IMG/VR virus record: IMGVR_UViG_3300045988_092566
Coordinates: 1 to 40,436 of that record
Reading direction: 5' to 3' (one strand)
Length of the DNA stretch: 40,436 bases
Source of the DNA: a virus
Made by a program: the position numbers and the translations under genes. Positions within the stretch are counted from its first letter, which is position 1. Every line of letters begins with the position of its first letter. Below the pieces are notes generated by a model, which was given only the letters and a program-made list of their open reading frames with translations, did not search any database and was not told the DNA's origin. Positions 604-40,301 of the stretch are shown piece by piece.

Positions 604-1845
604 TCAGTGCAAGACCTGACCGGGATAAATCGTGTACGGGGCACGCAACCCGTTGCGTTGGGCCGCGGCCGGCCAGCTGGAACCGTAGATCTTCCACAGG
701 CTCTCGCCCGCGGTGACCACGTGCGAGGTGGTTACGACATGGGCACCGACGCTGGAAGCGACCGAACCGCCGTAGCAGACTTGCTGCCCGGGCCAGATGC
801 GGTTGATGTTGCCGCTGGGCACGCTCCACGCGCTGGCCGGCGTGCGGCCGGTACGGCTGGCGATCGCGCCCATGGTGTCGCCGCTGGACACAACGACGCA
901 ATACGAGCCGGCATTGCCAGATGGCGTCGTGACGCCACTGCCGGACAGTCGCCGGTTAACTATGTCCATGACCGCCGCATAGTTGGATCCGAGCGCCTGT
1001 CGTCGTGCGGGATCGTTGCCGAAGTCGCCGCGGATGGTGCGCGTGGCCAGGGCATTCAGATCGACCGTCGGAGCTGTCGTGGGCTGTGGCGTCGGCTTGA
1101 CGTTCGGCAGGCTCGCCGTGCCCTTGTCGTCGGGGTTCGCGTACTTGCGCCAAGCCGCACGGTCGCCGCGGAACCTGTTCAGGTCGAGGCGCCCGGACCA
1201 GCCGCTGAGACTGCCGTTGCTCGTGTACTGACGCATGACCTCGCCGCGTGCGCCGAGGTTCCACGGTGCGGTCTGGTATCCGGTGACCATGTTCGTGGCG
1301 TACTGTGCGATCCAGATGCCGCAGTTCAGCTCGGTCTCCATGCCGGCGACCTGCCAGTACCCGGAGTCCATCGTGTAGATGATGGGGTTCACCCCGGTCA
1401 GGCGTTTGACCTCGCGCGCCCAGCGGCGCGGCCACTGCTTGTCGCCCCAGGCCGTGTTGTCCTGCGCCTCCCAGTCGAGGATCAGGACGCTCTTGTGCAC
1501 GTATCCGCGCACGTTATCGACGAAGAACCGGGCCTCAGCCTTCGGGTTGTCGCCGCGCGCGTAATGGTAGACGCCCGTCTCCTTGCCGCTGTTGATGGCA
1601 CCGGCGAGCTGACGGTTAGCGTCGGTGTTAACGCCGTTGGACAGGCATCCGCCGTACACGCCGCCGGAACCCCACGTGGTGCCGACGATGACGAAATCGG
1701 CCGGCACGCTCGCGGTGTCGATGCCGCACTGCCAGTTCGAAATGTCGTATCCGTCCATGTCGGCCATCGCCGCCGGGGCGAACGCCATGGAGGCTGCGAC
1801 GGCGAGCGCGGTCAGCGGCGTGCGCCAGCGTCGGCGGGGTTTCAT
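604..1845 (-). CDS. Endolysin: GH25 muramidase with N-terminal Sec-type signal peptide and C-terminal LysM-like repeats
   Basis: It carries the DGYDISNWQ GH25 motif. The N-terminus is MKPRRRWRTPLTALAVAASMAFAPAAMA. The C-terminus has two LysM-like units (GDTMGAIA..., GESLWKIY...). An alternative TTG start at 1878 would add 11 aa. Confidence 0.85.
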   Translation of the reverse strand: MKPRRRWRTPLTALAVAASMAFAPAAMADMDGYDISNWQCGIDTASVPADFVIVGTTWGSGGVYGGCLSNGVNTDANRQLAGAINSGKETGVYHYARGDNPKAEARFFVDNVRGYVHKSVLILDWEAQDNTAWGDKQWPRRWAREVKRLTGVNPIIYTMDSGYWQVAGMETELNCGIWIAQYATNMVTGYQTAPWNLGARGEVMRQYTSNGSLSGWSGRLDLNRFRGDRAAWRKYANPDDKGTASLPNVKPTPQPTTAPTVDLNALATRTIRGDFGNDPARRQALGSNYAAVMDIVNRRLSGSGVTTPSGNAGSYCVVVSSGDTMGAIASRTGRTPASAWSVPSGNINRIWPGQQVCYGGSVASSVGAHVVTTSHVVTAGESLWKIYGSSWPAAAQRNGLRAPYTIYPGQVLH

Positions 1846-1855
1846 GTGCTTCGGT

Positions 1856-1890
1856 TTGCCTTTGTTGAGGATACTCAAATTCCTCTCCTT
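1856..1890 (-). repeat. 35-bp conserved element, copy 1 (SD plus TTGAG-N4-CTCAA mini-palindrome) upstream of the endolysin
   Basis: TTGCCTTTGTTGAGGATACTCAAATTCCTCTCCTT differs at 1 position from 2425-2459. Confidence 0.8.
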
Positions 1891-1916
1891 CCTGCCCCAA
1901 GTCAGGGGCAAATAGA

Positions 1917-1942
1917 AAGGCCACCCCGTGGGGGGTGGCCTT
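1917..1942. terminator. GC-rich hairpin (AAGGCCACCCC/GGGGTGGCCTT), possible intrinsic terminator
   Basis: An 11-bp perfect stem with a 4-nt loop has T-rich flanks on both strands. It lies between the small TM ORF and the endolysin. Confidence 0.5.
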
Positions 1943-1961
1943 GGTTTTGAAAAAATCGATG

Positions 1962-2048
1962 TCAGCGCATGTGCGCGCCGTGATTGAACATGAGGATGAG
2001 CGCAAGCAATACCAGGTACGCTACGATTGCGATCATGAGACGTGTCAT
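1962..2048 (-). CDS. 28-aa hydrophobic peptide (MTRLMIAIVAYLVLLALILMFNHGAHMR), possible lysis accessory
   Basis: A GGAGG lies 7 nt upstream of the ATG at 2048. An ATGA overlap links it to the stop of the upstream TM protein gene. It has a single TM helix. Confidence 0.4.
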   Translation of the reverse strand: MTRLMIAIVAYLVLLALILMFNHGAHMR

Positions 2049-2359
2049 TGCTGGTCCTCCTGTATGTGCGCGTCGAGGATGTCGTTGCGCATTTCCGTGC
2101 CGACGCCATTGCCTCCCAGACCGCTGTAGGCGCGGTATATGCGTTCAGCGGTCCGTTTCGCCTCGACGGTGCATACGCCGCCGTTGTCCACCATCTGCCG
2201 ATGCAACAGTTCAAGCTTGCAGAACAGCAGCTCCTTCACGCCCTCGTACAGCGGGTCGCGCCTGTTGTCGATTTTGTCGAGCACCCACGGCACGAAAGCC
2301 CCGAAACCACCGGAACCGATGATGGCGACGACAATCGTGATGAGATATTCCTCATTCAT
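2045..2359 (-). CDS. Holin-like or lysis-associated membrane protein (104 aa, one N-terminal TM)
   Basis: The RBS GGGAGGAATCGAAAGG precedes the ATG at 2359. A TM segment (YLITIVVAIIGSGGFGAFVPWVL) is followed by a charged soluble tail. The gene sits at the head of the lysis cassette. Confidence 0.5.
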   Translation of the reverse strand: MNEEYLITIVVAIIGSGGFGAFVPWVLDKIDNRRDPLYEGVKELLFCKLELLHRQMVDNGGVCTVEAKRTAERIYRAYSGLGGNGVGTEMRNDILDAHIQEDQQ

Positions 2360-2424
2360 CCTTTCGATTCCTCCCATGGATTGACGCATCGGTCAGACCG
2401 CGCCGAAACCAACACGTCAACGGC

Positions 2425-2459
2425 TTGCCTTTGTTGAGGATGCTCAAATTCCTCTCCTT
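2425..2459 (-). repeat. 35-bp conserved element, copy 2, upstream of the holin-like gene
   Basis: TTGCCTTTGTTGAGGATGCTCAAATTCCTCTCCTT matches 1856-1890 at 34 of 35 positions. Confidence 0.8.
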
Positions 2460-2468
2460 TCTATATAA

Positions 2469-2494
2469 AAAAGCCACCCGTTTGGGTGGCTTTT
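2469..2494. terminator. Bidirectional intrinsic terminator hairpin (AAAAGCCACCC/GGGTGGCTTTT)
   Basis: A perfect stem with a 4-nt loop has A and T runs on both sides. Confidence 0.6.
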
Positions 2495-2511
2495 GTGGTT
2501 GGTGAAAAATA

Positions 2512-2883
2512 TCAGTAGGGACGGTCGGTGGCGGCGAACACGAGCGGCAATCCGGCATTCTGCAGCAGGGTCACGAGTGAACGGTCATCGAAACCACACA
2601 GGCGGGTCAGCACCGTCACGCCCGCATAAAACCGTACAGTCAAATTATTATTGTCGCTGATGAGATACGAGCCGTCCTTTAGCTGCCACACGACGTTCAC
2701 CAGTCCATCAGGCTTTGGTCTTGGCGGATTCAGCCAGCAGCCCTGCTCCACGTCGCCGGTGACGGTTATCTCACACCCCTCGTCGGTGGTCTTCGACGAG
2801 GCGGTCATGCCAGCAGGAGCCCACGGGGTGACCGCCTCACGGTCCTTCATGGTCGGCGGATTGTAAAGATTCCTGATTCTCAT
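2512..2883 (-). CDS. Hypothetical protein (123 aa)
   Basis: The ORF has an ATG at 2883 and high third-position GC in this frame. It lies downstream of the fibre genes. Confidence 0.55.
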   Translation of the reverse strand: MRIRNLYNPPTMKDREAVTPWAPAGMTASSKTTDEGCEITVTGDVEQGCWLNPPRPKPDGLVNVVWQLKDGSYLISDNNNLTVRFYAGVTVLTRLCGFDDRSLVTLLQNAGLPLVFAATDRPY

Positions 2884-2902
2884 GCCGCCACCCCCAATCC
2901 GC

Positions 2903-3226
2903 TTAGTAGGGTGCGGTGTCGGCGGTGAAGAAGCCCGGAAGCCCCCCCCCCACGACGTAAATGTCGTATGCGGGTTTCGATTCAATGGCGATATCACGGC
3001 AGGTGGTCTTGTCCTGCACCTGCACCAGCATGCTCGTGGTCTTGTCCAAATGGAATTCCGCCTCATTCAGCGTCTCGCCTAATGTGGCGGAACAGTTCCA
3101 GTCGGTGTCGCCCACGAAGAGTATGCCGCCCGTCTTGCTGACATGCCAGTCACCCTTCGGGAGCATGCCGAACCGGCGCACCGTATCCGTCAGCACAGGG
3201 TTCGAATAGGCGAGTTTCCGTCTCAT
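2903..3226 (-). CDS. Hypothetical protein (107 aa) containing a G10 tract near its 3' end
   Basis: An ATGA overlap links it to the stop of the 550-aa fibre gene. The homopolymer at 2942-2951 encodes the GGG in ...YVVGGGLPGFF. Confidence 0.55.
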   Translation of the reverse strand: MRRKLAYSNPVLTDTVRRFGMLPKGDWHVSKTGGILFVGDTDWNCSATLGETLNEAEFHLDKTTSMLVQVQDKTTCRDIAIESKPAYDIYVVGGGLPGFFTADTAPY

Positions 3227-4875
3227 TCCAATTCCTTTCCGGTCAATAGTGTCCAGCTGTCTATGGTTTTCCGCCAGATTTCGCGTGGCCTGTCCACGAG
3301 GAAGAACATCGAATTGGCGTCCGCGGCGGCCGTACCGTACGCGCCGGTGTAATATCGCAGGCCATTGTGGAGTTTTTCGGTGCGCACCCACAGGTCGCCG
3401 ACCACTCCGTCCGGCTGGTCGGCCTGAAGGTATACGTGCTTGGTGACAGTGGTGCCACCGGCTTTGATGGTGACTTCCGCTGGATGGTAGCAGTCCGATT
3501 TGAGCGCGGCCAATAGCGTGGTCGTATTGCTCACCCACGTCAGGGTCTGGCCGGCCAACGTGGCAACCGTGGTGTCCCGTGACGCCATGGACGCGTCCAC
3601 GTCCGACGTGTGCCCGTCCAGGTACGCGGCCACCGGTTTGAGCCTGATGGTCGGCTGGTCGGGAATCTCATACGGGCCGGCCACGACGAAGTCCACGGGT
3701 TCCATCCACAGGTCCGTCCGCATCGTGGCCGCGGGGAACCATTTGCGTAATTGCTCAAGGGTCTTTGCGGCTTCGCTGGCGGCGGCCGAAGCGGTATCGG
3801 CATGTTCCGCGCTGACCGTCTCAGACGTTTTCGCCGCGGTCTCGCTGGCCTTGGCCTTATCGGCCGATGTGGCCGCATCATGCGCTTTGCCGGTGGCCGT
3901 GCTGGCGGAGGTATTGGCTGATTGGGCGGCCGTCTCCGCGTTGGCCGCGCTGGCATTGGCCGCGGCCTCGCTGTCTTTTGCCTTCGCCGCCGAATCGGAT
4001 GCCGCCGTCGCCGACCGTGCCGCCGCGCTCTCGGATGCCGATGCCGCCGACTTGGATTGTCCGGCGCTCTCGGCCGACTTCGCGGAGGCGGATTCGCTCG
4101 CCTGCGCCGCAGTGGCGGATCGCCCCGCCGCCTGGGCCTTGTCGGCGGCCGTCCGCATGGCGTCTTCGGCGGCCTGCCTTGCCGCCTCGGCCCTGGCCTG
4201 CGCGTCGATCGCGGCGTCGGCCTTGCCGCCCGCTGTCTTGGCCGCGGTGTCGGCGGTAGCCGCGTCACGCCCGACCTGTGCGGCTGTCTCCGTGATCCGC
4301 GCCGCAATGGTCTTGGCCTCGCCGATCAGCCCCTGCGCCGTGGTCTCGGCTTCGTGCGCGAGACTGGCGCTGGACGCCGCCGCCGTCTGCGATGCGAGTG
4401 CCCTCACGGCCGCATCCGCCGCCTTCGCACTCTCCTGCCCCGCCACTCCTTCGCTGGCCTTCGCCGCCTGCGCGGACCGTTCGTCGCGGGCCACCTTGTC
4501 GTCGATCGAATCGATCTGATCCAGAGCGGACTGGGCGGCTCGGGTCACGGTCTCCCACGCGGCCACCGTCTCCGAGCTCGGATCGAGCGTGGCGGGATCC
4601 ACATCCGCCAGCCCTGAGTACTCCGCCGACTCCTTGTCGGGCACCTCGACGTATCGCACGATTCCGCCCGCCACCAGCTCGCTCACCCTCCACACCCACT
4701 GGGTGGTCGAGGGCATCACCTCCGCGGTGGCCTCGCCTTTGTCGAGCTTGACGGTCTGCGCGACCGGCAGGCGGATCGCGTCACGCACCGTCACGCGTCT
4801 TGTGGGCACGAGGCTCACGCTGCCGTCCAGACCGCACCCCTCGGCGTCGGTCAGGTGGAAATGCACCAATGTCAT
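3223..4875 (-). CDS. Tail fibre or minor tail protein with a long Ala-rich coiled-coil stalk (550 aa)
   Basis: It has a globular N-terminus, about 270 aa of A/S/T/E/K-rich repeats, and a globular C-terminus. Other frames in this region are shadow ORFs. Confidence 0.7.
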   Translation of the reverse strand: MTLVHFHLTDAEGCGLDGSVSLVPTRRVTVRDAIRLPVAQTVKLDKGEATAEVMPSTTQWVWRVSELVAGGIVRYVEVPDKESAEYSGLADVDPATLDPSSETVAAWETVTRAAQSALDQIDSIDDKVARDERSAQAAKASEGVAGQESAKAADAAVRALASQTAAASSASLAHEAETTAQGLIGEAKTIAARITETAAQVGRDAATADTAAKTAGGKADAAIDAQARAEAARQAAEDAMRTAADKAQAAGRSATAAQASESASAKSAESAGQSKSAASASESAAARSATAASDSAAKAKDSEAAANASAANAETAAQSANTSASTATGKAHDAATSADKAKASETAAKTSETVSAEHADTASAAASEAAKTLEQLRKWFPAATMRTDLWMEPVDFVVAGPYEIPDQPTIRLKPVAAYLDGHTSDVDASMASRDTTVATLAGQTLTWVSNTTTLLAALKSDCYHPAEVTIKAGGTTVTKHVYLQADQPDGVVGDLWVRTEKLHNGLRYYTGAYGTAAADANSMFFLVDRPREIWRKTIDSWTLLTGKELE

Positions 4876-5099: not shown

Positions 5100-5152
5100 G
5101 AAAACCCACAGGTCGGAACGTTTCGCCGGAACGATGCCGACTGTGGGTTTTC
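5100..5152. promoter_or_regulatory. Long inverted repeat (about 16-bp stem) immediately upstream of the recombinase RBS
   Basis: GAAAACCCACAGGTCGG ... CCGACTGTGGGTTTTC, with T-rich flanks on both strands. Confidence 0.5.
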
Positions 5153-5173: not shown

Positions 5174-6046
5174 ATGCTGTTGGGAACGTTCGTGGATGAT
5201 GTCTGGTGGCCGTCCTGCGCGAGGCTCCGTGAATGTACAAGAGTGGGCTACGAATCGGCCTACCGTTGTCATATCCAGTCGAAGTGGGGTGGTGTCGATA
5301 TGGAGTCGATCACTGCATCAGATATCGAGGAATGGCTAGGCTCGTTCAAGCGGGCTGGCGCCGCACGGAAGGCTTGGGCCGTTCTGCGGGCGATACTGAG
5401 GCTCGCCTACCGGCGTGGCGTCACGGACAATGACGTGACCAGAAGGGAGATCCGTTTGCCGCATCTCCGCCGTTACGAGCCGCGGGTATTGGACGCACGC
5501 CAGGTGCGCCGCCTGCTGAAAGGCTTCTATGGCCACGCGTTGGAGGCGTGGCTGCTGGTCTCCGTATGCGCCGGATTGAGACGATGCGAGTCCGTCGGCA
5601 TCGAATGGTCCGATCTGGACTTGAAGCGAGGCACGGTCACCGTCAAACGTTCCGTGCAATGGGTCGCCGGCCATGAGACGGTCACCGACCCGAAAACCGA
5701 CCAGAGCAGACGAACCGTGGCACTTCCCCGATTCGCAGTCAAAAGGCTCGCGCAGTTGAAACACGGCAGGAGCGGACGGCTGGTAGGAGACCTGAACGCT
5801 AACCAGGTCGCCTCACACTACATGGCATGGTGCCGGCGGATGAAACTCCCCTGCGTGCCGCCACGCAACCTGCGCCACACCTTCGGAACACTGGCGATTG
5901 CCGCCGGCGCCGACATCTCAGTGGTCGCACGCCAGCTCGGACACAGCGACATCAAGACCACGGCCCGCTACTATCTGCGCCCGGATCTGTCGGTGCTGAA
6001 GAGTCTGCAGCGGGCATGGGAGCGGCTCATTATCGGGGTCGCATAG
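5174..6046 (+). CDS. Tyrosine recombinase, shufflon-type invertase (Rci/Rin-like), 290 aa
   Basis: Catalytic-type motifs are present: AGLRRCE, LRHTFGT, GHSDIKTTARYY. It is the only plus-strand gene in the late region. Its TAG stop is the first 3 nt of the inverted recombination site. Confidence 0.85.
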   Translation: MLLGTFVDDVWWPSCARLRECTRVGYESAYRCHIQSKWGGVDMESITASDIEEWLGSFKRAGAARKAWAVLRAILRLAYRRGVTDNDVTRREIRLPHLRRYEPRVLDARQVRRLLKGFYGHALEAWLLVSVCAGLRRCESVGIEWSDLDLKRGTVTVKRSVQWVAGHETVTDPKTDQSRRTVALPRFAVKRLAQLKHGRSGRLVGDLNANQVASHYMAWCRRMKLPCVPPRNLRHTFGTLAIAAGADISVVARQLGHSDIKTTARYYLRPDLSVLKSLQRAWERLIIGVA

Positions 6047-6059
6047 CTTTCCGTAGCCC
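6044..6059 (-). repeat. Recombination site S6, the only copy in inverted orientation
   Basis: TAGCTTTCCGTAGCCC is the reverse complement of GGGCTACGGAAAGCTA, with one mismatch to the core of the other six sites. Confidence 0.85.
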
Positions 6060-6406
6060 TCACTGCTACCTTTAAGTTTCAGGACACAGGATCGTTTGTT
6101 GGCGCCCTATATGGTGGATCCAACACGATTACCGTCAAGGGCAACATGCTGTATGTCGATTTGAGCTCTTTCAAATCAACCGTCGAAATCTCGAACTACC
6201 GTGTCTGGTTATATCAGTCAGGGATACGTCCATCGGCCACAATTGGACTGGGATGTGTTGGATCAAGTCTTGCGGATCCGCGCTACAACAAGCAAGCGAA
6301 TTGGAATCCGGATGGCAGTATTACGTTACTTGGCGGAATTGGCAGGGAGAACATTCTGATGCAGCGTTTTTCCATGCCGATTCCTAGTGGAGTGACGTTC
6401 TCCTAG
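6060..6406 (+). other. Silent RBP C-terminal cassette A (plus orientation, about 116 aa)
   Basis: The open frame continues directly from the TCC GTA GCC junction of S6 (LSVALTATFKF...GVTFS*). It has no start codon or RBS of its own at the junction. Confidence 0.8.
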
Positions 6407-6728
6407 ACAAGTGGCACCGTGATACAGCCTTCGACCCATCCCCCGTTTGCGCTTACTGTCATCTTTCCCGAGGAACGCAAGGCGATGGTGTGCTGCGCCA
6501 CCTGCACTTCGACGCCATGCAATCCGATGCTCGAATTGGATACTGCGGCGCAATGCACCTCGAAAGCCGCCTCCAAACCGGCTGGGAGTGTGAAAAGCGG
6601 GGATGTCTCCCATTCTTTCGCCGCATTCCAGTCGCTACCGACTCGGATTGCGTGGAATGCGACGATCAACAGCTTGCCTACCAGCGCGGTACGGTAATTC
6701 ACGTTCCAATTCTGGTTCGATCTGGTGA
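6403..6728 (-). other. Silent RBP C-terminal cassette C5 (about 109 aa)
   Basis: The frame runs from the S5 junction as SVTLTRSNQNWNVNYRTALVGK...VPLV*. Its stop shares the CTAG at 6403-6406 with cassette A. Confidence 0.8.
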
Positions 6729-6744
6729 GGGTTACGGAAAGCTA
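6729..6744 (+). repeat. Recombination site S5
   Basis: GGGTTACGGAAAGCTA. Confidence 0.85.
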
Positions 6745-6745
6745 T

Positions 6746-7041
6746 TCAGGCGAGAATGTAGGTCATCGTCCCGTAGAACGTGCCGCTGTTCTGCACCGCG
6801 CCACAATTGGCATAACGGAAATTGCCATTCGTTTCCAGAATGAAATCACGCTGGCTGCCACCATCACGCCCCGACCACGTACCATGCGTGACGACCGCAG
6901 GCCTCCAACCCTTCGGAATTGTACCGAACTGTCCACTGCCCCACGAGTCAGTGCTCGCGCTTTTCCAGTTGATGCTAATCTGCGCGATCTTGCCAGACTT
7001 CACGCCGGTCACGGTGCCATACTGCGATTTAATCAAAGTCT
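6746..7041 (-). other. Silent RBP C-terminal cassette C4 (about 99 aa)
   Basis: In frame from the S4 junction: SVTQTLIKSQYGTVTG...TMTYILA*. Confidence 0.8.
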
Positions 7042-7057
7042 GGGTTACGGAATGCTA
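7042..7057 (+). repeat. Recombination site S4
   Basis: GGGTTACGGAATGCTA. The CTA provides the TAG stop of cassette C3. Confidence 0.85.
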
Positions 7058-7353
7058 TTTCACCGACCAGCAGCCGCAGATGCGGAAATAGTATCCACGG
7101 TTCATGCTGCCGTTGATCGTGACCTTGCCGTCAGAGTCAAAGTACAAGGCTCCATGCTGCCCGTTCACGCCTTCCAGCAGTATCGTGCCTTCATCCTCCG
7201 GCAGGAAACCGGCGACCATCGTCTCATTCACGATCTGGCCGTTGGTATTGATGTCGGAGGAGAAGGACGTGTTGCCAAAAGCGAACGCCATCCTGCCGAC
7301 TTTGGCGAGACGCACCGTCATGCCGTAAGGCCCATGCCAGATCTGCCGTTCAA
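7055..7353 (-). other. Silent RBP C-terminal cassette C3 (about 100 aa)
   Basis: In frame from the S3 junction: SVTLERQIWHGPYGMTVRLAK...CGCWSVK*. Confidence 0.8.
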
Positions 7354-7369
7354 GGGTTACGGAAAGCTA
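7354..7369 (+). repeat. Recombination site S3
   Basis: GGGTTACGGAAAGCTA. Confidence 0.85.
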
Positions 7370-7373
7370 GAAA

Positions 7374-7657
7374 TCATGGGATTGGGAAACAAAGCGTGCC
7401 GACGCAATCCTGATTGCTGCCAACGTTTCCCATGTTCGCCACTCGGATAGTTCCATCAGCTCTGGCCGTGAGGCTTCGCGCCGTTTGCCCATTTGATACA
7501 AGGCAGACAGTCGACAAGTCAACGATGGGACGATACCAGGACGCGAGCTTTACCGGACATTCAACAGCATCCCAACTGCCCGAACCGATTTTCCCACTGA
7601 ACTTGATCAAAATCATCCTGCCGTTACGCATGATGATCCAATTGGAATCCTGGTACA
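7374..7657 (-). other. Silent RBP C-terminal cassette C2 (about 95 aa), paralogous to C1
   Basis: In frame from the S2 junction: SVTLYQDSNWIIMRNGRMILIKFSGKIGSGSWD...CFPIP*. Confidence 0.8.
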
Positions 7658-7673
7658 GGGTTACGGAAAACTA
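7658..7673 (+). repeat. Recombination site S2
   Basis: GGGTTACGGAAAACTA. Confidence 0.85.
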
Positions 7674-7676
7674 TCC

Positions 7677-7960
7677 TCATGGGATCGGATAGCAGAGCGA
7701 GCCGACGCAACCCTGATTGCTGCCAGCGGCTCCCATGTTCGCGCATCGGATGGTTCCGTTCGGGTTGACGACAAGCATTCTCGCCGTCTGCCCGTTCGAC
7801 ACGCACACCATCGCATTGACCTCGATAGGCGGGCGCAGTTCGGCGGGCAACACGTATTCGCATTGCACTGAATCCCAACTGCCACTACCGATATTGCCGG
7901 AATACTTGACGAGCATCATCATGCCGGTGCGGACGACCGCGAAGCCCTTCGCGTTATACA
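7677..7960 (-). other. Silent RBP C-terminal cassette C1 (about 95 aa)
   Basis: In frame from the S1 junction: SVTLYNAKGFAVVRTGMMMLVKYSGNIGSGSWD...CYPIP*. Confidence 0.8.
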
Positions 7961-7976
7961 GGGTTACGGAAAACTA
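7961..7976 (+). repeat. Recombination site S1
   Basis: GGGTTACGGAAAACTA. The CTA is the TAG stop of the currently expressed RBP. Confidence 0.85.
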
Positions 7977-8801
7977 CTGCTTCGCGTCGAAGACGTGGAC
8001 AGTCACGGCGATGCGATAGCTCAGCGATGTGCCGCTGGCGTTCCATGCGACAATCTGAAATCCTTTTGCCGAATGACTGTTCGTAATCATCGAGATGTTG
8101 TTGAACGACGGCACTTTGTTTTTAGCGTCATTCATCAACTGTAATTCGACGGAGTATGAATCCCAGTTTGCCGCTTCGATCGGCAGCTTGATGTCTATTG
8201 ACGTGTTCGTGTTCGGCTTGAAGATCATGGACGCGACGCGGTAGGCGTCATAGCCTCTAGGCCGCGCGACCACGACCCATTCACCCGACTGGGTTACGGA
8301 ATCCCACAGCTTCGACATGGGAGGCAGCTGTTTGATGAGCATGACCGGCGTGCCGGGCGTGATCCCGCTGATCGGGATGCGGGCGATCGGGATCCACACC
8401 GTGCCGGAGGCCGAGTGGATGCTGCCCGACGGGACGGTCGGATCGGCGGCCGTTCCGGTGTTTGGCGTGCCTTTGAGTACGGCGATGGCAGCGGTCTCGA
8501 TGTTCTGACCGTTCCGTGTGTATTTGAGGCAGACGAGGTCGTTGCGGTTCCGGCCGCTCACGCCGCTTTCGATGGTCGCGGTCTCGGCCTCGGTGACGCG
8601 CGCGTATCGTCCTTCGACCACGAGGTTGAGGACGGGGATCAGCGCGTGATTCGCATCCTGCATGGTCACCGTAGGGAAAGTGCCGTCGCTGCCCTGCAGC
8701 AGGTAGCTTCCGTTGCCGATGATTCCGGCTTGCATGGCGCCCATGTCGCCGCTGGTGATGTGCGGTGTGCCGCCCTTGCCTGTGATGAGCGTGGTGGTCA
8801 T
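7974..8801 (-). CDS. Tail receptor-binding protein: constant N-terminal 168 aa fused at site S0 to the currently active C-terminal cassette C0
   Basis: The 275-aa ORF lies directly after the Tal gene and a small Zn-ribbon gene. The internal site at 8291-8306 encodes WDSVTQ. The C-terminal 105 aa occupies the same position as the silent cassettes. Confidence 0.8.
   Translation of the reverse strand: MTTTLITGKGGTPHITSGDMGAMQAGIIGNGSYLLQGSDGTFPTVTMQDANHALIPVLNLVVEGRYARVTEAETATIESGVSGRNRNDLVCLKYTRNGQNIETAAIAVLKGTPNTGTAADPTVPSGSIHSASGTVWIPIARIPISGITPGTPVMLIKQLPPMSKLWDSVTQSGEWVVVARPRGYDAYRVASMIFKPNTNTSIDIKLPIEAANWDSYSVELQLMNDAKNKVPSFNNISMITNSHSAKGFQIVAWNASGTSLSYRIAVTVHVFDAKQ
8291..8306 (+). repeat. 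Recombination site S0, inside the expressed RBP gene
   Basis: GGGTTACGGAATCCCA shares the 11-bp core GGGTTACGGAA with S1-S5. Confidence 0.85.
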
Positions 8802-8802
8802 G

Positions 8803-9036
8803 TCAGTCCTTTCCCTCGGTAAGCCATGCCGTGTAGGCCGCGTCCTGCGTGGCGGCGAGTTTCTTGAATTCCTGCTGGCATGAGGTGCATGCCAGCGCCT
8901 CCTGCGTCACTCCGTCCGCGGTGGTGTGTTTGATCTGGTGCCAGTCGCTCGACGTGCGCGGATCTCCGTCGGTGAGGTATGCGCTGTCGTGGCAGCGGTC
9001 GCATGTGTATTTGGTGATGTTCGTGGTTTTTGCCAT
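8803..9036 (-). CDS. Small Zn-ribbon protein (77 aa; CDRC...CTSC)
   Basis: The RBS GAAAGGAACATC precedes the ATG at 9036. Two CxxC pairs are present. Confidence 0.6.
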   Translation of the reverse strand: MAKTTNITKYTCDRCHDSAYLTDGDPRTSSDWHQIKHTTADGVTQEALACTSCQQEFKKLAATQDAAYTAWLTEGKD

Positions 9037-9046
9037 GATGTTCCTT

Positions 9047-10675
9047 TCAGGCGAGTCTTTGCCAGACGTGTCCGCCGATGATGGTGTGGATTTCCTTCCA
9101 TGTGCCGCCATGGTCGTTGGGGTCTCCGGCGACGCACCAGTAGAGCGAGCCGATTGGGTGTGCGGCGAGGAAGGATGCCGCTGTCGCGCTGGATTGTGCG
9201 GTGATGGTGCCGTCCTGGCCGATGGTGATGGTCTTGCCATCGGGTTTGACGCCGCCGAGGGTGGCGGTGGATGCCACTGGCAGCGTGTACTTGTTCGCGC
9301 CGGACTGGATGCCGTCGAGCTTCTTCTTGTCTGCGGCGGCCATGAGCCCGTCCGCCGATGATGTGGCCTGTGCGACGGTGATGGCAGCCGTCTCGTCGGT
9401 GCGGGTCACTGTGACGGGAGCCGATGCAGTGATGTCCAAGATTCGCGCCTGCGCCGCGGCCAACGCGTTCTGCGCCGTGGTGGTGGCCGTGTCGGCTTTT
9501 ACGCCGGCCTGTTTGGCGAGGTCTCTGGCGCCTCCGATTTCGGCCGCGGCGTCGCTTGCGGCCTTGTTGGCTTCGGTGGCGGTTTTGCGGACCGTTTCGA
9601 GGTCGGCGGCGGTCACATCGGCGCTGAACGTCCAGTTGGAGAGGGTGAGGCCGCTGCCGGCGTAGTAGGCGTGGCCGTCTCCGGAGCTTGATCCACCGCC
9701 GCCGGTCTCGCCGGTCGATTCCGTGGATGCGGTGGTCGCATCGTAGGTTACGGTCGGGATGCCGTCTTCGATTTTGATGATTTTTTTGGTGATTTCGGCG
9801 GTGACCTTGATGCCGGTGGTGTTGTCGCGGCCGGTCACGGTGTCGCCCACGTCGAGGTCGATGCCGTCGGATTCCACATCCACGTCGATGCTGCCTGTAT
9901 CTCGCAGCTCCTGGAGCTTTGTCTTGCCTTTGGTCTCGAGTTCGGCGGCGTCGGCGTTGCTGAGCTCGTAGACGCTTGTGCGCTCGTCCGCGCCTTTGAT
10001 GGTCTGCGTGTGGCTGAGCGTGCCTTTCTGGTCGGCGTACCAGTGGACGACGATCCTGTCCTTGAGGTCGCCCTTGCCGAGGCAGATCAGGTGGTTGACC
10101 GGATGCGAGGCGAGGGTCGCGTCGAAGTCGATGAGGTCGGAGTCGATGAGGTCGCCGGCGGCCGTGATCGGCGGCGCGTCGACTGTCACGCCGTTCTGCG
10201 CTGCGGTGATGCGCAGCCGCAGTCCTGATGCGCGCAGCATCTTGGACAGGCCGCTCCACGCGTCGCAGTACCGGTCGAACTGCCAGTTTGCGGTTTTGGA
10301 TGTGCCTTCCGTGACGGTGAGGATGTCCTGCAGTCCGATACGGGAGATGACGGTGCGCAGGAGCGTGCCGATCGTGCCGCTCATGGTCAGGTAGTCCTTG
10401 CCCTTGTCGGGTTCGAGGATCTTCGAGGCGAGCAGGCCGTGCCAGTCGCGACCGTGGTAGGTGAGCTCGCCCTCGCCGCCGGTGACGCTGGTCTTCACGT
10501 CGTCGACGATGCCGCCCCAGCCGGTGCCGTCGACCCACCATCGGCAGCCTGGTTTCAGGCATGCCGGGCATTGGAGGTCGAAGTCGTTCTCCCCCGACCC
10601 GTATGCCAGGTCGAGCGTCCATGAGGCGTACGAGCCGGACGGCGTGCCGTTCGTGTCGGTGACGATCAGGTCCAT
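9047..10675 (-). CDS. Tal-like tail tip or baseplate hub protein with C-terminal fibre extension (542 aa)
   Basis: It follows Dit. The size and the C-terminal fibre-type repeats (LGGVKPDGKTITIGQDGTITAQ) fit this call. Confidence 0.75.
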   Translation of the reverse strand: MDLIVTDTNGTPSGSYASWTLDLAYGSGENDFDLQCPACLKPGCRWWVDGTGWGGIVDDVKTSVTGGEGELTYHGRDWHGLLASKILEPDKGKDYLTMSGTIGTLLRTVISRIGLQDILTVTEGTSKTANWQFDRYCDAWSGLSKMLRASGLRLRITAAQNGVTVDAPPITAAGDLIDSDLIDFDATLASHPVNHLICLGKGDLKDRIVVHWYADQKGTLSHTQTIKGADERTSVYELSNADAAELETKGKTKLQELRDTGSIDVDVESDGIDLDVGDTVTGRDNTTGIKVTAEITKKIIKIEDGIPTVTYDATTASTESTGETGGGGSSSGDGHAYYAGSGLTLSNWTFSADVTAADLETVRKTATEANKAASDAAAEIGGARDLAKQAGVKADTATTTAQNALAAAQARILDITASAPVTVTRTDETAAITVAQATSSADGLMAAADKKKLDGIQSGANKYTLPVASTATLGGVKPDGKTITIGQDGTITAQSSATAASFLAAHPIGSLYWCVAGDPNDHGGTWKEIHTIIGGHVWQRLA

Positions 10676-11493
10676 GGCGGTTCGCTCCTCTCTTCGATGG
10701 CGGTCAGGTCGAATTTGAATCCGCCAGCCCAGCTGATCGTGCTCATGCCGGGCGGCAGCGGTTCAAAGATGTAGGTTCCGGATCCGCGTCCGGTGCCTCG
10801 CACGGCTTTGCCGAAGAGGTTGGTGCGCAGGCCGGTGTCCGAGATCATCGTGACGGTTCTGCTATCGGAGGCCGCGTCGATTTCAAGTCTGCTGCCAGCC
10901 GGTATGGTCGCGTCGACCTCGTACCGGTTCGTGCCGATGATGATGTACGGGTTGACGCACGGGCCGAAGATCGTGAGCTTCACCGGCTGCGGCATGCCGG
11001 TCGCGTTGGTCACGGTGTCGAGGATGCTCATGCCGGCGTAGTCGTGCGGGTAGTCGTACGGGTAGTCGAGGTCGCCGCCGGCCTTGTCGGCTCGCGGATC
11101 GTGGTGTTCGGTGGTCCCGCGCCGCCACACGCCGTCTGCAAGCACGATGGTCAGCTGCGTCTCGACCATCGTGGGCGTGATGGACTGCGGCTCGCTCTTC
11201 GCGATCCACGCCCTGGTCTCCCATTCGCCGTCGGCCACGAGGGTGCCTGGCGTGCCGGCGGCCATGTCGGCGTCGGCGAGGCGGCGCAGCAGGTCGAGCG
11301 TGGCCGGAGAATCGTGGATCTTCACGGTGACTGTCGCCTCGCGTGCCTTGCGGGTGATGCCCGTCATGCCACGTGAGGCGAGGCTGTAGTCCCAGACGCG
11401 GGCTCGCAGTCCCGTGAGCGTTTCGCCGTACAGAGGCCCTTCGAAGCCGATTCGCTCACCTGTGGCGGCGCACGCGTATTCAAGCGATTGCAC
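10666..11493 (-). CDS. Distal tail protein (Dit-like), 275 aa
   Basis: It lies immediately downstream of the tape measure gene and overlaps its end. The size is typical for Dit. Confidence 0.7.
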   Translation of the reverse strand: MQSLEYACAATGERIGFEGPLYGETLTGLRARVWDYSLASRGMTGITRKAREATVTVKIHDSPATLDLLRRLADADMAAGTPGTLVADGEWETRAWIAKSEPQSITPTMVETQLTIVLADGVWRRGTTEHHDPRADKAGGDLDYPYDYPHDYAGMSILDTVTNATGMPQPVKLTIFGPCVNPYIIIGTNRYEVDATIPAGSRLEIDAASDSRTVTMISDTGLRTNLFGKAVRGTGRGSGTYIFEPLPPGMSTISWAGGFKFDLTAIEERSEPPWT

Positions 11494-14242
11494 TTCTCAC
11501 CTTCCTTGCGAAGTCGCGGTCCCCTATCGTCGGCGTGTATCGGGCGATGATCGATCCGAGGTCGTCGTGCAGCGATTCGACGGCCGCGATGAGTTCCCGC
11601 AGATCGCCGTCGCCGGCATTGGCGCCGGTGCCGGCCGTGACGTTCAGCCTGCCGGTCTTCGACCAGTCCGCGTCGGAGAGGCTCATCGTGGAGACGAGCG
11701 AATCCATGGAACGGCTGACCACATGCGCGGAATCGTCGATGCCCAATGCCATGCCACGTCCGACCATCACGCCGACCTCGTCGCGGAACACACGCGACGG
11801 CGAGTGGATGCCCAAAGCGTTCTTGGCCTTGTCCACCAAGCCCGACAACGCGTTGGTGATGCTGGAATACAACGAGCCGACCATTCCTGTGATGCCGTTG
11901 ATCAATCCCTGGATGATGTTGCGTCCCGCGCTGACGAGCCAGCTTCCCGCGCCGGACACCGCGCTCCGGACGGTTCCGCCGATCCCGCTCACGACGCTCC
12001 CGACACGGCCAACCATGTTGCTTACGGTGCCGACGATGCCGCCCCAGACGCTCGACACAATGCTTCCGACGCCATTCCACAACGCGGCCCACACGCTCCG
12101 GATTGTCGAGCATGCGGCGGATACCACTCCGCTGACCATGCCGATGCCGGCGGAGACGACGCCTTGGATGCCGCCCCACACTGCCGACACGATGCCCTGG
12201 ATGGCCGACCACGCGGCGCTCCAGTTCCCGTTGACGACCGCGAGCGCCAGTTGGATGATGCCTTGGATGACGGCGAGTGCGGTGCTGATGACTGTGGCGA
12301 TGATGGTCCATGCGCCTTGTACGACGGTGGATATGGTGTTCCAGAGTCCGTTCCAGACCGTGCTGATGATTGTGACGGCGGTTTGGAAGATGGTTTGGAT
12401 GTTCTGTATTCCTGCTTGCAGGAGTGGTGTGATGGTGGCGGTGAATGTTTGGATGCCGGTGATGATCGCGGTGAGCGCGGTCATGATGATGGGGCCGATC
12501 GTGTTCCAGACGTTTTGGAGGACGGTGGTGATGAGTGTCCATCCGGTTTGCCAGATTTGCTGGATTTGGCTCATGGTCTGGGTGATGAATATGGCGATGG
12601 CTTGCAGGATTGGCTGGCATGCGGTGCTGATCTGGTTCCAGATTCCCATGAACCATGTGGCGAAGCTGTTCCAGAGTCGTTTGCCCGTTTCGGTTTGGGT
12701 GAAGAACCATGTCAGTGCGGCCACGACCGCGGTGATGCCTGCGATGACGAGGACGAATGGGTTCGCGGCGAGGAGTCCTGTGAACAGTCCCCATGTGGTT
12801 CGCGCCGCGGTGGCGACTGTTTTGAACGTTCCGACGGCTGTCTGCACGATGCCGAAGTTGCCTGCGGTGGCTTTCAATGCCGGGCCGATGCCGCCGAGGT
12901 CGGTGGCAAGGTTGACGAATCCTGAGATGCCTTTTGCCGCTGTGGTGATTCCAGTGGCGCTTCTGCTGATGCCGTCCAATGCGGCTGGCAATGCTTTGAA
13001 GCCGGCTGATGCCGCGCCGATGCCTTTGCTGGCGAGGACGAACGCGGTGATTCCCTTGGCCAGCGGGATGATGCTGTCCGCGTGGGCCGACACGTAGTCG
13101 AGAAGACCTGACACGGCATGCAGGAGTGTTTTGAATCCGTCAGCGATTGCGGGCAATTGTCCTTTCGCCTGATTGTAGAGTTCGGAGAGCGGTCCGGAGA
13201 TGACGTTCCAGACGGCTCCGGCAGCTCCCGACAGGGATGAGCCGAGTTCCTTCAGATCGTCCTTGAGGGAAGCGAGATAGGAGGCGAACTGCTGGACGGT
13301 CTGGCTTTTACCGAGCTTGTCGAAGAAGGCGGTGACCGTGGGGATGGCCTGTTCCAATCCCTTCTGCAATCCCGCGCCGACCTTCTCCAGCGTCGGTTTC
13401 ACGGCGGCGGTGAACGTGTCGATGAGCGGAATGGCCTGGTTGAACAGTCCGCGCAGTCCGTTGAGGACGGGCGTGGCTGCGGTCTCGCCGAGTCGGCTCA
13501 ACGCGGCCTTCACGTTGGCCAGGGCGCCGGCGAACGTGGTGCCGGCGCTCTGGGCGGCACCGCCCAATCCTTCCTTCATGGCGTCGGCGAAGGTCTGGAA
13601 GTCGATCTTGCCGTCCGAGACCATGTCGGACACTTCGGCGCTGGTCTTGTTCAGGTGCTTGCCGAGCATCTGGAGGACCGGAATGCCGCTCGACATGAGC
13701 TGGAGCATGTCGTCGCCCTGGAGCTTGCCTCGCGCGGCGACCGATCCGAAGATCGTGCCGATGTCGGTGAGGCTTCTGCCGCTGATCTGCGCGGTGTCGG
13801 CGACGGTCTTGAGGACCTGTGTGAGCTCGCCGCCCTCCTTGACGCCGGAGGCCGAGAGGCTGGCCGCGACGGTCGCGGCGTCGCCCAGTCCGAACGCGGT
13901 GCCCTTGACGGATGCGAGCGCGTCGTTCATGATTTCGGTGACGCTTGCGCTGTCGTGGCCGAGGCCCTTGAGCTTGGCCTGCGCGTTCTCGATGTTGAGG
14001 GCGCGCGTGAAGCCGCCCTTGGCCGCGAGGGCGGTGATGCCGCCTGCGATGGTGGCGATCGCGCCTGTGCCGACCTTGCCGATCTTGCCGAACGCGCCGC
14101 CGATTTTCGAGATGAGAGTGTTGGAGCCTTTCCTGGAGGCTTTGCTGACGGCGTCGCCGATGTCGCCTTCGATGCTTTTGCCGAATCCTTTGCCGGATGG
14201 TTCGACGTGGACGTATACGACGCCGATGTCCTGTGCTGCCAT
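11480..14242 (-). CDS. Tape measure protein (920 aa)
   Basis: This is the longest ORF in the window. It has Gly/Ala/Ile-rich repeated TM-like segments and lies after the G/GT chaperones. Confidence 0.9.
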   Translation of the reverse strand: MAAQDIGVVYVHVEPSGKGFGKSIEGDIGDAVSKASRKGSNTLISKIGGAFGKIGKVGTGAIATIAGGITALAAKGGFTRALNIENAQAKLKGLGHDSASVTEIMNDALASVKGTAFGLGDAATVAASLSASGVKEGGELTQVLKTVADTAQISGRSLTDIGTIFGSVAARGKLQGDDMLQLMSSGIPVLQMLGKHLNKTSAEVSDMVSDGKIDFQTFADAMKEGLGGAAQSAGTTFAGALANVKAALSRLGETAATPVLNGLRGLFNQAIPLIDTFTAAVKPTLEKVGAGLQKGLEQAIPTVTAFFDKLGKSQTVQQFASYLASLKDDLKELGSSLSGAAGAVWNVISGPLSELYNQAKGQLPAIADGFKTLLHAVSGLLDYVSAHADSIIPLAKGITAFVLASKGIGAASAGFKALPAALDGISRSATGITTAAKGISGFVNLATDLGGIGPALKATAGNFGIVQTAVGTFKTVATAARTTWGLFTGLLAANPFVLVIAGITAVVAALTWFFTQTETGKRLWNSFATWFMGIWNQISTACQPILQAIAIFITQTMSQIQQIWQTGWTLITTVLQNVWNTIGPIIMTALTAIITGIQTFTATITPLLQAGIQNIQTIFQTAVTIISTVWNGLWNTISTVVQGAWTIIATVISTALAVIQGIIQLALAVVNGNWSAAWSAIQGIVSAVWGGIQGVVSAGIGMVSGVVSAACSTIRSVWAALWNGVGSIVSSVWGGIVGTVSNMVGRVGSVVSGIGGTVRSAVSGAGSWLVSAGRNIIQGLINGITGMVGSLYSSITNALSGLVDKAKNALGIHSPSRVFRDEVGVMVGRGMALGIDDSAHVVSRSMDSLVSTMSLSDADWSKTGRLNVTAGTGANAGDGDLRELIAAVESLHDDLGSIIARYTPTIGDRDFARKVRSAIA

Positions 14243-33343: not shown

Positions 33344-33435
33344 TGCCGGGACGCGGATTCGAACCGCGCATCCATCCGCCGACGTGACCTCAACACGCCG
33401 ATCCATGGCGCCCGCATCCTGTCGCGGGTCCCGGC
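33344..33435 (-). tRNA. 92-nt tRNA-like gene, non-canonical, with competing Leu(GAG)-like and Ser(GGA)-like anticodon arms
   Basis: The acceptor stem is GCCGGGA/TCCCGGC (7 bp). The T-arm is CGCGG-TTCGAAT-CCGCG. The D-arm is CGC-GACAGGAT-GCG. The stem-loop GGCGTG-TTGAGGT-CACGTC has U33 and G37. Confidence 0.45.
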
Positions 33436-39017: not shown

Positions 39018-40301
39018 GTGGGAAGAAGCGCCATGAAAGTGACCATTGATGATCTGTGGCTCAAGAATGACGATGATGGCAATCCGCCGAGTCGCGCGGC
39101 CAAACGCTCTTTGGCGAACTCACGCGATCCGATGAAGGCCAATGTGCCTGAGAAGTGGCGTAAAAGCCGTTATGGGGTCGGGATGCGCTGGCGTTGTCAT
39201 TGGACCATCGTCAAGGACGGTAGACGTGTGCAGAGGGTGAAGCAGTTCGCCAGGCTCGCCGAAGCGCAGGAATATGCCGCGGCCATGGAGGACGACATCA
39301 GGCGGGGACGCTACCGCGATCCTCGTCAGGAGCTTCGTGTCCTGGATGATGTGGCCGGCGAATGGCTCGCGTCGAAGGTTGATTTGAAACCCGGCACCGC
39401 GGGCCGGTATGCGAGGGAGCTGCGCCTGTACATCCTGCCCAAATGGGGTGGCATGACGTTGCGTGAGCTGCGCCCTGACATGCTGCAGGAGTGGGTCGGC
39501 CAGCTCATGGACGGTGGTTATCCGGCCGCGTTGCCGGACGGGCGTGATTCGAAGCCGCTGAGTGCGAGAAGCATCCGCAATATCATGAAAGTCGTCCTCA
39601 AGGGCATCTTTGACTACGCCGTCTCGAACGGGTGGATCGGTGAGAATCCTGTGGACAGGGTCACCGTGCCGAAGATCGTCTCCGACGACGACATGGTGTT
39701 CCTCTCGGTCCGCGAGGTCGAGTTGCTCGCGGACGAGGCGGAGAAGATCGGGAAGCCGGTGGACGGTCTGCTGGTCAGATGGCAGGCCTATACGGGATGC
39801 CGCATAGGCGAATCGCTTGCCCTTAAGGTCGGTGACGTGGATGTGGACAGGCGGCGCGCCAGGATAGGCCGCACATGGACTGACGACGGGCACGGCGGCA
39901 GCATGCTCGGCACCCCGAAGAACGGCAAGGCCCGCAACATCGCGATACCACGGTTCCTTATGCCGCAGATCAAGGCGCAGATGGATGGCATGGGTGATGA
40001 CGACTGGCTGTTCCGTGCCACCCGTGGCGGGAACGTCTGGACGAACACGTGGCGGACAAGGATATGGAACAAGGCCGTCAAAGCGGCCGGCATGGAGGAC
40101 GCGGGCGTGACCATACACAGTCTGCGCCACACATACGCGAGCTTCGCGATCGCCCAGGGCGCGGACGTGAAGACCCTGCAGATGCAGCTCGGCCACTCCT
40201 CTCCCAGCATCACATTGAACACCTACACGGCGCTCTGGCCGGAACGATTGGACGACGTGGCCGACGCGATCGGAGCCCTCCGCGAGCGCGAACTCGTGTG
40301 A
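39018..40301 (+). CDS. int: Tyrosine integrase (427 aa from the GTG at 39018; 422 aa from the ATG at 39033)
   Basis: It has an N-terminal SAM-like/arm-binding region and the catalytic motifs TGCRIGE, HSLRHTYAS and GHSSPSITLNTY. It is adjacent to attR and the tRNA. Confidence 0.9.
   Translation: MGRSAMKVTIDDLWLKNDDDGNPPSRAAKRSLANSRDPMKANVPEKWRKSRYGVGMRWRCHWTIVKDGRRVQRVKQFARLAEAQEYAAAMEDDIRRGRYRDPRQELRVLDDVAGEWLASKVDLKPGTAGRYARELRLYILPKWGGMTLRELRPDMLQEWVGQLMDGGYPAALPDGRDSKPLSARSIRNIMKVVLKGIFDYAVSNGWIGENPVDRVTVPKIVSDDDMVFLSVREVELLADEAEKIGKPVDGLLVRWQAYTGCRIGESLALKVGDVDVDRRRARIGRTWTDDGHGGSMLGTPKNGKARNIAIPRFLMPQIKAQMDGMGDDDWLFRATRGGNVWTNTWRTRIWNKAVKAAGMEDAGVTIHSLRHTYASFAIAQGADVKTLQMQLGHSSPSITLNTYTALWPERLDDVADAIGALRERELV

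Follow-up and report, generated by a model that had tools for sequence, protein, structure and literature searches.

Positions 1 to 40,436 of the IMG/VR virus record IMGVR_UViG_3300045988_092566, a stretch of 40,436 bp that is referred to below as the window, contain a candidate Rin-type shufflon of a Bifidobacterium phage at 5174-8801. The locus consists of a tyrosine recombinase gene, rin (5174..6046, + strand), a series of silent coding cassettes and a tail gene, Rc-C0 (7974..8801, - strand), whose 275-aa product occupies the slot of a receptor-binding protein (RBP). Each cassette, including the head segment that forms the C-terminal part of Rc-C0, opens at a copy of a short repeated site, rix. 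An earlier note on this DNA had proposed that one constant N-terminus can here be joined to seven different C-terminal domains by a recombinase acting at these sites.

A search of the whole window for the core GGGTTACGGAA, with at most one mismatch allowed, returned seven matches, every one inside 6049-8301; the expectation from 100 dinucleotide-preserving shuffles was 0.29, and seven copies were reached in 0/100 of them. Six of the cores are perfect, start on the + strand at 6729, 7042, 7354, 7658, 7961 and 8291, and are direct repeats of one another. The seventh (6049-6059) is in reverse-complement orientation, has one mismatch and reads TTCCGTAGCCC on the + strand; the sole inverted site is the imperfect one, and it adjoins rin. 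The seven 16-bp sites counted in the earlier note are therefore all present, with the correction that six are direct and that the single inverted copy deviates by one base. The full rin-side rix (6044..6059, + strand) carries a G at position 8 of the core and contains the rin stop codon TAG in its left arm, TAGCT (the extended site being ATAGCT followed by TTCCGTAGCCC); no other site is inverted relative to the one in Rc.

Conservation of the site exceeds the 11 bp of the core and extends to 16-17 bp. The five bases left of the core are TAG(C/T)(T/A) at silent sites and TGGGA in the expressed gene, and an in-frame TAG stands two codons ahead of the TCC at all of the silent sites in the window (6/6). 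When the silent sites of the relatives described below are added, an in-frame upstream TAG is found in 280/282, and comparison of the sites of the window and the relatives indicates that they are asymmetric.

Read as TCC-GTA-ACC, which encodes S-V-T (S-V-A at the seventh), each site opens a stop-terminated frame of 97-118 aa; the earlier note was right about the common frame and the stops, but its lengths of 95-116 aa were slightly too short. In the expressed gene, Rc runs from 8801 to 8301, (D)SVT corresponds to the rix core at 8291-8301, and the head cassette C0 (108 aa) runs from 8300 to 7974. The 8291 site thus encodes W-D-S-V-T within the 275-aa open reading frame (8801..7974), as had been claimed, and 167 residues precede the Ser. 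Five silent cassettes follow on the - strand: C1 (97 aa; 7970 to 7677, core 7961-7971), its paralogue C2 (97 aa; 7667 to 7374, core 7658-7668), C3 (102 aa; 7363 to 7055, core 7354-7364), C4 (101 aa; 7051 to 6746, core 7042-7052) and C5 (111 aa; 6738 to 6403, core 6729-6739). Cassette A (118 aa; 6050 to 6406, + strand), likewise silent, is read from the rin-side site and begins SVA. A and C5 form a tail-to-tail pair whose stop codons overlap in a palindrome, CTAG (6403..6406), with no rix between the two.

At profile level (hhalign), the seven heads comprise at least five unrelated groups, namely {C1, C2, C4}, C3, C0, C5, and A, with C4 remotely homologous to C1 and C2. Most copies are silent, yet the cassette families have dN/dS ratios of 0.08-0.45 (A 0.31, C5 0.34, C3 0.32), and broken frames occur only in one related locus, L091, so the frames are conserved open in related prophages, as the earlier note would have them. 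Its statement that the silent segments have no start or ribosome-binding site of their own also stands: no suitably placed Shine-Dalgarno-like motif was found before the first in-frame start codon of the silent cassettes, C2 having only an AGGA about 15 nt upstream. The possibility that the cassettes are independent small genes was ruled out by the absence of a well-placed motif of this kind, by the in-frame TAG upstream and by the fusion of the cassettes to Rc in relatives. The G+C content of the cassette region (6000-8000) is 54-55%, compared with 60-65% in the adjoining tail genes.

The rin gene abuts the array and, as first described, encodes a 290-aa tyrosine recombinase; the protein is of XerD type and matches Pfam family PF00589 at 1.1e-15 and the PHROG integrase group phrog_1 at 1.2e-48. 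It is without an arm-binding domain; the only Pfam domain in its N-terminal part is a SAM-like N-domain, and its best PDB sequence match is XerD (1a0p). The residues R136, K174, R234, H257, and Y266/Y267 are present and, in alignment, conserved down to a Collinsella homologue of 53% identity. The window also encodes a distinct, lambda-type integrase (Int; 427 aa, 39018-40301, + strand, PF00589 at 4.6e-25), which shares 26% identity with Rin and extends about 105 residues further at the N-terminus. There was no serine-recombinase family among the Pfam hits of Rin, and the sole recombinase adjoining the array belongs to PF00589. The assembly collection lists this exact Rin protein in 1,324 blocks.

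The tail genes on the - strand run in the order tape measure protein (TMP; 11480-14242, phrog_58), Dit (10666-11493, phrog_33), Tal or minor tail protein (9047-10675, phrog_538), a small CxxC protein, Rc-C0 and the silent cassettes, followed by the antisense rin, a minor-tail-like protein and an endolysin. Because the PHROG hits identify the upstream tail module as TMP-Dit-Tal, the Rc-Rv protein is placed in the RBP slot. Rc-C0 itself had no match in Pfam, and PDB sequence searches with the single sequence or a profile returned nothing meaningful. An AlphaFold2 model of Rc-C0 built on an alignment of close relatives had a mean pLDDT of 35.6; with Firmicutes homologues added, residues 31-160 were modeled with pLDDT 62-93. 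Foldseek matched the Rc model to the RBP of lactococcal phage p2 (2bsd/1zru, E 5.5e-3, prob 1.0) and, lower in the list, to that of phage 1358 (4l92, E 0.37), and in BFVD it found 43 models with E<=1e-3, many of them named Receptor Binding Protein or RBP sandwich domain. On the basis of these matches, the model identifies Rc as an RBP shoulder domain with a fold like that of lactococcal phage RBPs. In p2-type RBPs the shoulder/neck is joined to a head domain, and rix sits at the shoulder/neck-to-head junction of such RBPs.

For comparison we used the phage records of PMBT6 of Bifidobacterium thermophilum (L002, MK932884) and gut phage ctl617, loci from B. angulatum, uncultured Bifidobacterium, and Collinsella that were obtained in a genome scan, 80 retained of 217 IMG/VR relatives, and ten contigs with an identical Rin. 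Every locus was scanned for rix, and the cassettes were clustered into 21 families. Named Rc-Rv homologues are from B. adolescentis, B. pseudocatenulatum, and B. catenulatum. In every locus rin stands at the array end, and 59/60 complete loci (59 distinct arrangements) have a convergent topology, with “>” cassettes by rin and then “<” cassettes up to Rc. This is expected, because inversion between oppositely oriented sites preserves exactly such a topology. The A/C5 pair should likewise never separate, because there is no site between its members and an inversion-only exchange requires adjacency, and A and C5 are adjacent, in either order, in 33/33 loci that hold both. Complete loci contain 2-8 cassettes (n=60), with 6 or more in 27/60 and 7 or 8 in 10/60, so the large repertoire stressed in the earlier note is indeed at the high end of the range, though not unique.

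All seven cassette families of the window were found fused to Rc in some relative, in support of the proposed joining of one constant N-terminus to seven C-termini. Family A, with 33 members, is fused to Rc in L077, L096, and L111, C5 in 7 relatives, C4 in 18, C3 in L110, C2 in L108, L131, and L140, and C1 in PMBT6 and five further relatives. Alignment shows 100%-identical Rc sequences joined to differing heads, with identity ending exactly after WDSV(T). Among identical-Rin loci from different samples, L151 and L154 are one inversion apart, whereas L149/L150 and L152/L153 are two apart. The pair L143/L144 also differs by two inversions. These rix-bounded rearrangements are observed by comparison among relatives of the window. 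Contigs that end inside the array mostly do so at the sites, 22/24 stopping at most 104 bp past a rix core and 12/24 at most 3 bp from the core or inside the site. Since a 17-bp repeat alone would not break the assembly, alternative junctions probably coexist in the samples with such broken contigs.

The relatives also suggest where strands are exchanged. The G at core position 8 travels with cassette A in 32/33 cases, whatever the left neighbor (the rin end, Rc, or the tail of another cassette), and is never found on any other cassette family, while the six bases left of the core always follow the preceding unit. Because the G stays with A and the left flank stays with the preceding unit, we infer from the sequences that exchange is confined to the 7 bp TTCCGTA; 7 bp is the typical size of tyrosine-recombinase overlap regions. 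The mismatch of the window's inverted site should not block recombination, since the position of the G is outside the exchange region. Two loci contain rare forms of the core, with T at position 8 in L083 (7197 and 7855) and C at position 2 in L119 (3484 and 4791). In each locus the variant occupies two sites of opposite orientation, on cassettes whose core is the standard one in other places, and it might reflect heteroduplex repair or conversion during exchange.

The same observations bear on whether the array is a frozen relic of past shuffling that no longer switches and leaves Rc-C0 as a fixed RBP. The window has a single inverted partner site left, and that one carries a mismatch; moreover, related loci do decay, as seen in the broken cassettes of L091 and in the degenerate rin-side site and truncated partner cassette of PMBT6. 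We nevertheless regard a relic as improbable, given that Rin is intact, with the identical protein so widespread in the assembly collection, and that all seven frames are open. The mismatch itself falls outside the 7-bp exchange region, and in relatives the A site with its G occurs in every context (by rin, internal, and fused to Rc) and is therefore exchange-competent.

With regard to PMBT6, its rin-side rix (L002 4290-4400) reads TTCCGTAATCA, and the frame behind it spans only about 25 codons. It is the sole complete locus without an intact inverted site and may be locked on Rc-C1.

Head swapping can also proceed in other ways, and distant Rc homologues provide an example. Homologues of 26-28% identity occupy the slot after TMP-Dit-Tal in prophages of [Ruminococcus] lactaris (L158-L161, 5001-5873) and in Clostridium scindens phage phiCs5676-1 (L146, 4992-5804). 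Within the R. lactaris family, identity of 82-95% stops at 62-73% of the length, which indicates that heads were swapped at a similar boundary without a shufflon; in L158-L161 the RBP gene has neither cassettes nor a recombinase beside it, and small genes, a holin, and a lysin come next. By analogy, heads of the Bifidobacterium phages could be exchanged mainly by general or short-homology recombination between coinfecting phages, the neighboring recombinase having another job. The R. lactaris homologues, which swap the C-terminus at about 62% of the length with neither recombinase nor cassettes, would be in line with this, as would the differing cassette content of identical-Rin loci. However, the breakpoints in the Bifidobacterium loci fall in a single stretch of 7 bp within a site of 16-17 bp, too short a length for RecA-type exchange, and the convergent topology and invariant tail-to-tail pairs are predictions of site-specific inversion. 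With rin invariably at the array end, and inversions reported inside a single lysogen culture (PMC6109161), homologous swapping is very improbable as the main source of the diversity seen here.

A shufflon at the distant Firmicutes Rc homologues (L146, L147, and L158-L161) was considered and rejected, as these have no repeated sites. Near the Rc homologue of L146, at a distance of about 450 bp, is a gene with a transposase annotation.

We therefore consider it highly probable that the locus is a multiple-inversion shufflon of Rin type, located among the tail genes of a Bifidobacterium siphophage or prophage. In the proposed mechanism, the armless XerD-like Rin, as the putative acting enzyme, would pair two oppositely oriented rix sites, and strand exchange within TTCCGTA would invert the intervening DNA. 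An inversion using the rix internal to Rc would swap the head segment for another cassette, the reading frame being retained because the core always encodes S-V-T, whereas inversions between silent sites only would reorder the cassettes. Silent cassettes lack a start codon context and are closed upstream by the in-frame TAG in the left arm of the site. In the sequenced state the expressed form is Rc-C0, and inversion between the sites at 8291 and 6049 would produce Rc-A and turn C0-C5 round. A second inversion would then bring in any of C1-C5, placing every head within two steps at most; from the present state A is the only cassette that one inversion can reach, and C1-C5 need two. The heads would presumably bind different host receptors, so that switching would alter host range. 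Activity of the very copy in the window is predicted from its sequence.

Recombination among the six direct sites would delete cassettes instead of switching heads, and in the proposed mechanism only inverted sites would recombine. The alternative is that Rin also, or even mainly, deletes, with exchange between Rc and a direct silent site fusing Rc irreversibly to a downstream cassette and releasing a cassette circle. The published account of the system leaves open how an armless recombinase avoids deletion (PMC6109161). The 11-bp core is identical at the six direct sites of the window, and among the relatives, with their 2-8 cassettes, minimal loci keep only the tail-to-tail pair (e.g., A and C5 in L127). 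Large arrays are nonetheless widespread, as seen in the 27/60 complete loci with at least six cassettes, and the sites are asymmetric; in the Rci/sfx system of R64 such asymmetry blocks recombination between direct sites. We accordingly give a deleting Rin very little credence.

Several observations weigh against the shufflon as formulated above, or against the firmness of its parts. Rin has R231 in place of the first His of HxxR, a position at which the Collinsella homologue has Q. All but one of the seven sites are direct repeats, and relatives differ in cassette number, from 2 to 8. Concerning the heads, a Pfam search of the seven cassettes gave nothing above noise, a PDB sequence search was likewise without a match, and in the AlphaFold2 model with Firmicutes homologues the head has pLDDT <50; the PDB E-values of the Foldseek matches to Rc (best 5.5e-3) are marginal. 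The receptor-binding role of the heads is suggested by their position and by HHpred results reported for B. breve cassettes (PMC6109161). Finally, the differences between relatives and the contig breaks in metagenomes could reflect coexisting strains instead of ongoing switching.

Losses and gains of cassettes do occur, since cassette number varies among the relatives. It is conceivable, if rather unlikely, that rix-bounded cassettes constitute a shared exchangeable pool, comparable to an integron, in which Rin inverts and occasionally also excises and captures cassettes at rix. Such a pool would explain how phages with an identical Rin come to have 2-8 heads in differing combinations, out of at least 21 families. 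It would also explain why these phages have an exchange sequence of their own, TTCCGTA as against the published TTCCCTA, which would keep the pool apart from that of the B. breve and B. longum phages.

The Rin shufflon was described by Mavrich et al. (2018) from dnaJ2-integrated prophages in B. breve and B. longum, namely Bb423phi1, Bl157phi1, and Bl30698phi1 (PMC6109161), and the earlier note's mention of Rin-type shufflons in Bifidobacterium prophages matches this report. The published system has a predicted armless tyrosine invertase, cassettes (Rv) 95-100 residues long, and an asymmetric 11-bp rix, TTCCCTAACCC; rix inversions were reported between prophages, in virion DNA, and in reads of a B. 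breve lysogen, and a change of host range was not demonstrated in the 2018 paper (PMC6109161). In 2022 clade 1 prophages of Eggerthella lenta were reported to have a Rin shufflon as well (PMC8778435). The window agrees with the published arrangement in having an armless tyrosine recombinase at one end of the array and a 168-aa constant RBP N-terminus (Rc) at the other, with promoterless cassettes of about 100 aa, each behind an in-frame asymmetric 11-bp rix. It also shares the setting in a Bifidobacterium siphophage tail module, a separate lambda-type integrase elsewhere in the genome, and an N-terminus that resembles lactococcal RBPs.

In contrast to the published rix, the core is TTCCGTAACCC rather than TTCCCTAACCC, the two matching at 10/11 positions and differing at position 5. 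Because this position is inside the exchange region, the lineage of the window and that of the published rix would probably not recombine with each other, to judge from their sites. The exact published core variant occurs beside rin in the Collinsella homologue L006. The window also has seven cassettes as opposed to five in Bb423phi1, and its lineage differs from the published ones: the nearest named relatives are PMBT6 and prophages of B. adolescentis, B. pseudocatenulatum, and B. catenulatum, and the genome scan for relatives returned no locus from B. breve or B. longum. The locus is a new instance, and a large one, of the system described in 2018, and its lineage and site variant are new relative to the published accounts of Rin shufflons that we found.

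The R64/IncI shufflon (Rci, sfx, pilV) is likewise a multiple-inversion system driven by a tyrosine recombinase, with a constant N-terminus and alternative C-terminal adhesin segments. In both, the recombinase gene adjoins the array. The sites of R64 are asymmetric with a 7-bp spacer as the short central exchange region, and those of the window would resemble them in asymmetry and in an exchange region of 7 bp; the topology of 59/60 complete loci fits inversion-only exchange. They differ in that the target here is a phage RBP and not the tip of a conjugative pilus, and in that the host is an actinobacterium. The sequence of the sfx site is unrelated to that of rix here, and a relationship between Rin and Rci is seen only at the level of family PF00589; the top rows of a tblastn search of Rin against plasmids contained only generic integrases and XerD, at 25-31% identity. 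The likeness to R64 Rci drawn in the earlier note therefore holds for the architecture but is not shown to be homology.

Inversion also swaps the receptor-recognizing C-terminal part of a phage tail protein in the Gin (Mu), Cin (P1), and Min (p15B) systems, the last of which is a multicassette shufflon, but those enzymes are serine invertases, whereas Rin belongs to PF00589. The phase-variable hsdS shufflons of type I restriction-modification systems, such as ivr of Streptococcus pneumoniae, have an adjoining tyrosine recombinase. They resemble the present locus in that the recombinase lies by silent partial coding cassettes and that short inverted repeats in the expressed gene serve in-frame domain replacement; however, their target is a DNA-specificity subunit and not a virion protein, and their repeats and cassettes are unrelated to those of the window. 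The RBPs of lactococcal phages p2, 1358, and TP901-1 have a shoulder/neck and an exchangeable head of about 100 aa, and the Rc model matches those of p2 and 1358, but their heads are exchanged over evolutionary time and with no built-in switch.

Two related arrays have unusual structures. In L066 (IMGVR_UViG_3300045988_081409, 1766-4233), there are two copies of C3 in opposite orientation, and the array ends, instead of at Rc, in a left flank resembling the 3' end of a PMBT6-type rin, so either the assembly is chimeric at a rix site or the array lies between two rin genes. L130 (5766-5797) has two rix cores 21 bp apart with only a copy of the Rc left arm between them (AGCTGTGGGA), and this mini-unit might be the scar of an aberrant exchange.

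As a whole, the window looks like a complete temperate phage genome, extending from the lysis module through int, and it includes a tRNA-Leu(GAG) gene at 33345-33427 (- strand). Between Tal and Rc is the gene of the small CxxC protein (8803-9036, - strand), which has 77 aa and two CxxC pairs and matches phrog_28750 and, weakly, zf-CHY; a gene of similar size occupies this slot in PMBT6, ctl617, and the identical-Rin loci. Just beyond rin on the - strand is the gene of the minor-tail-like protein (3223-4875, phrog_6614), which is 550 aa long and very Ala-rich, and the endolysin is encoded at 604-2214 on the - strand. In identical-Rin loci the slot of the minor-tail-like protein holds a protein of 250-274 aa, and because its contents differ in this way the region beside the shufflon is mosaic. 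A terminator-like hairpin with 26-nt arms (5100..5152, - strand; RNA fold -28.2 kcal/mol, z = -4.8) lies between the rin start and the next gene on the - strand and is followed on that strand by GTTTTTC. Late transcripts that cross the silent cassettes and run antisense to rin may stop there, and it is uncertain whether the hairpin belongs to the switch.

A built-in head switch would let one temperate phage present several adsorption specificities, which bears on phage-host dynamics of gut bifidobacteria and on why permissive hosts for their phages are hard to find. To the system as published, the window and its relatives add scale and detail in the form of 1,324 blocks with an identical Rin, at least 21 head families, arrays of up to eight cassettes, an invariant topology, and a map of a 7-bp exchange region. 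With six direct sites and one inverted site, the copy in the window is a natural substrate for the choice between inversion and deletion by an armless tyrosine recombinase.

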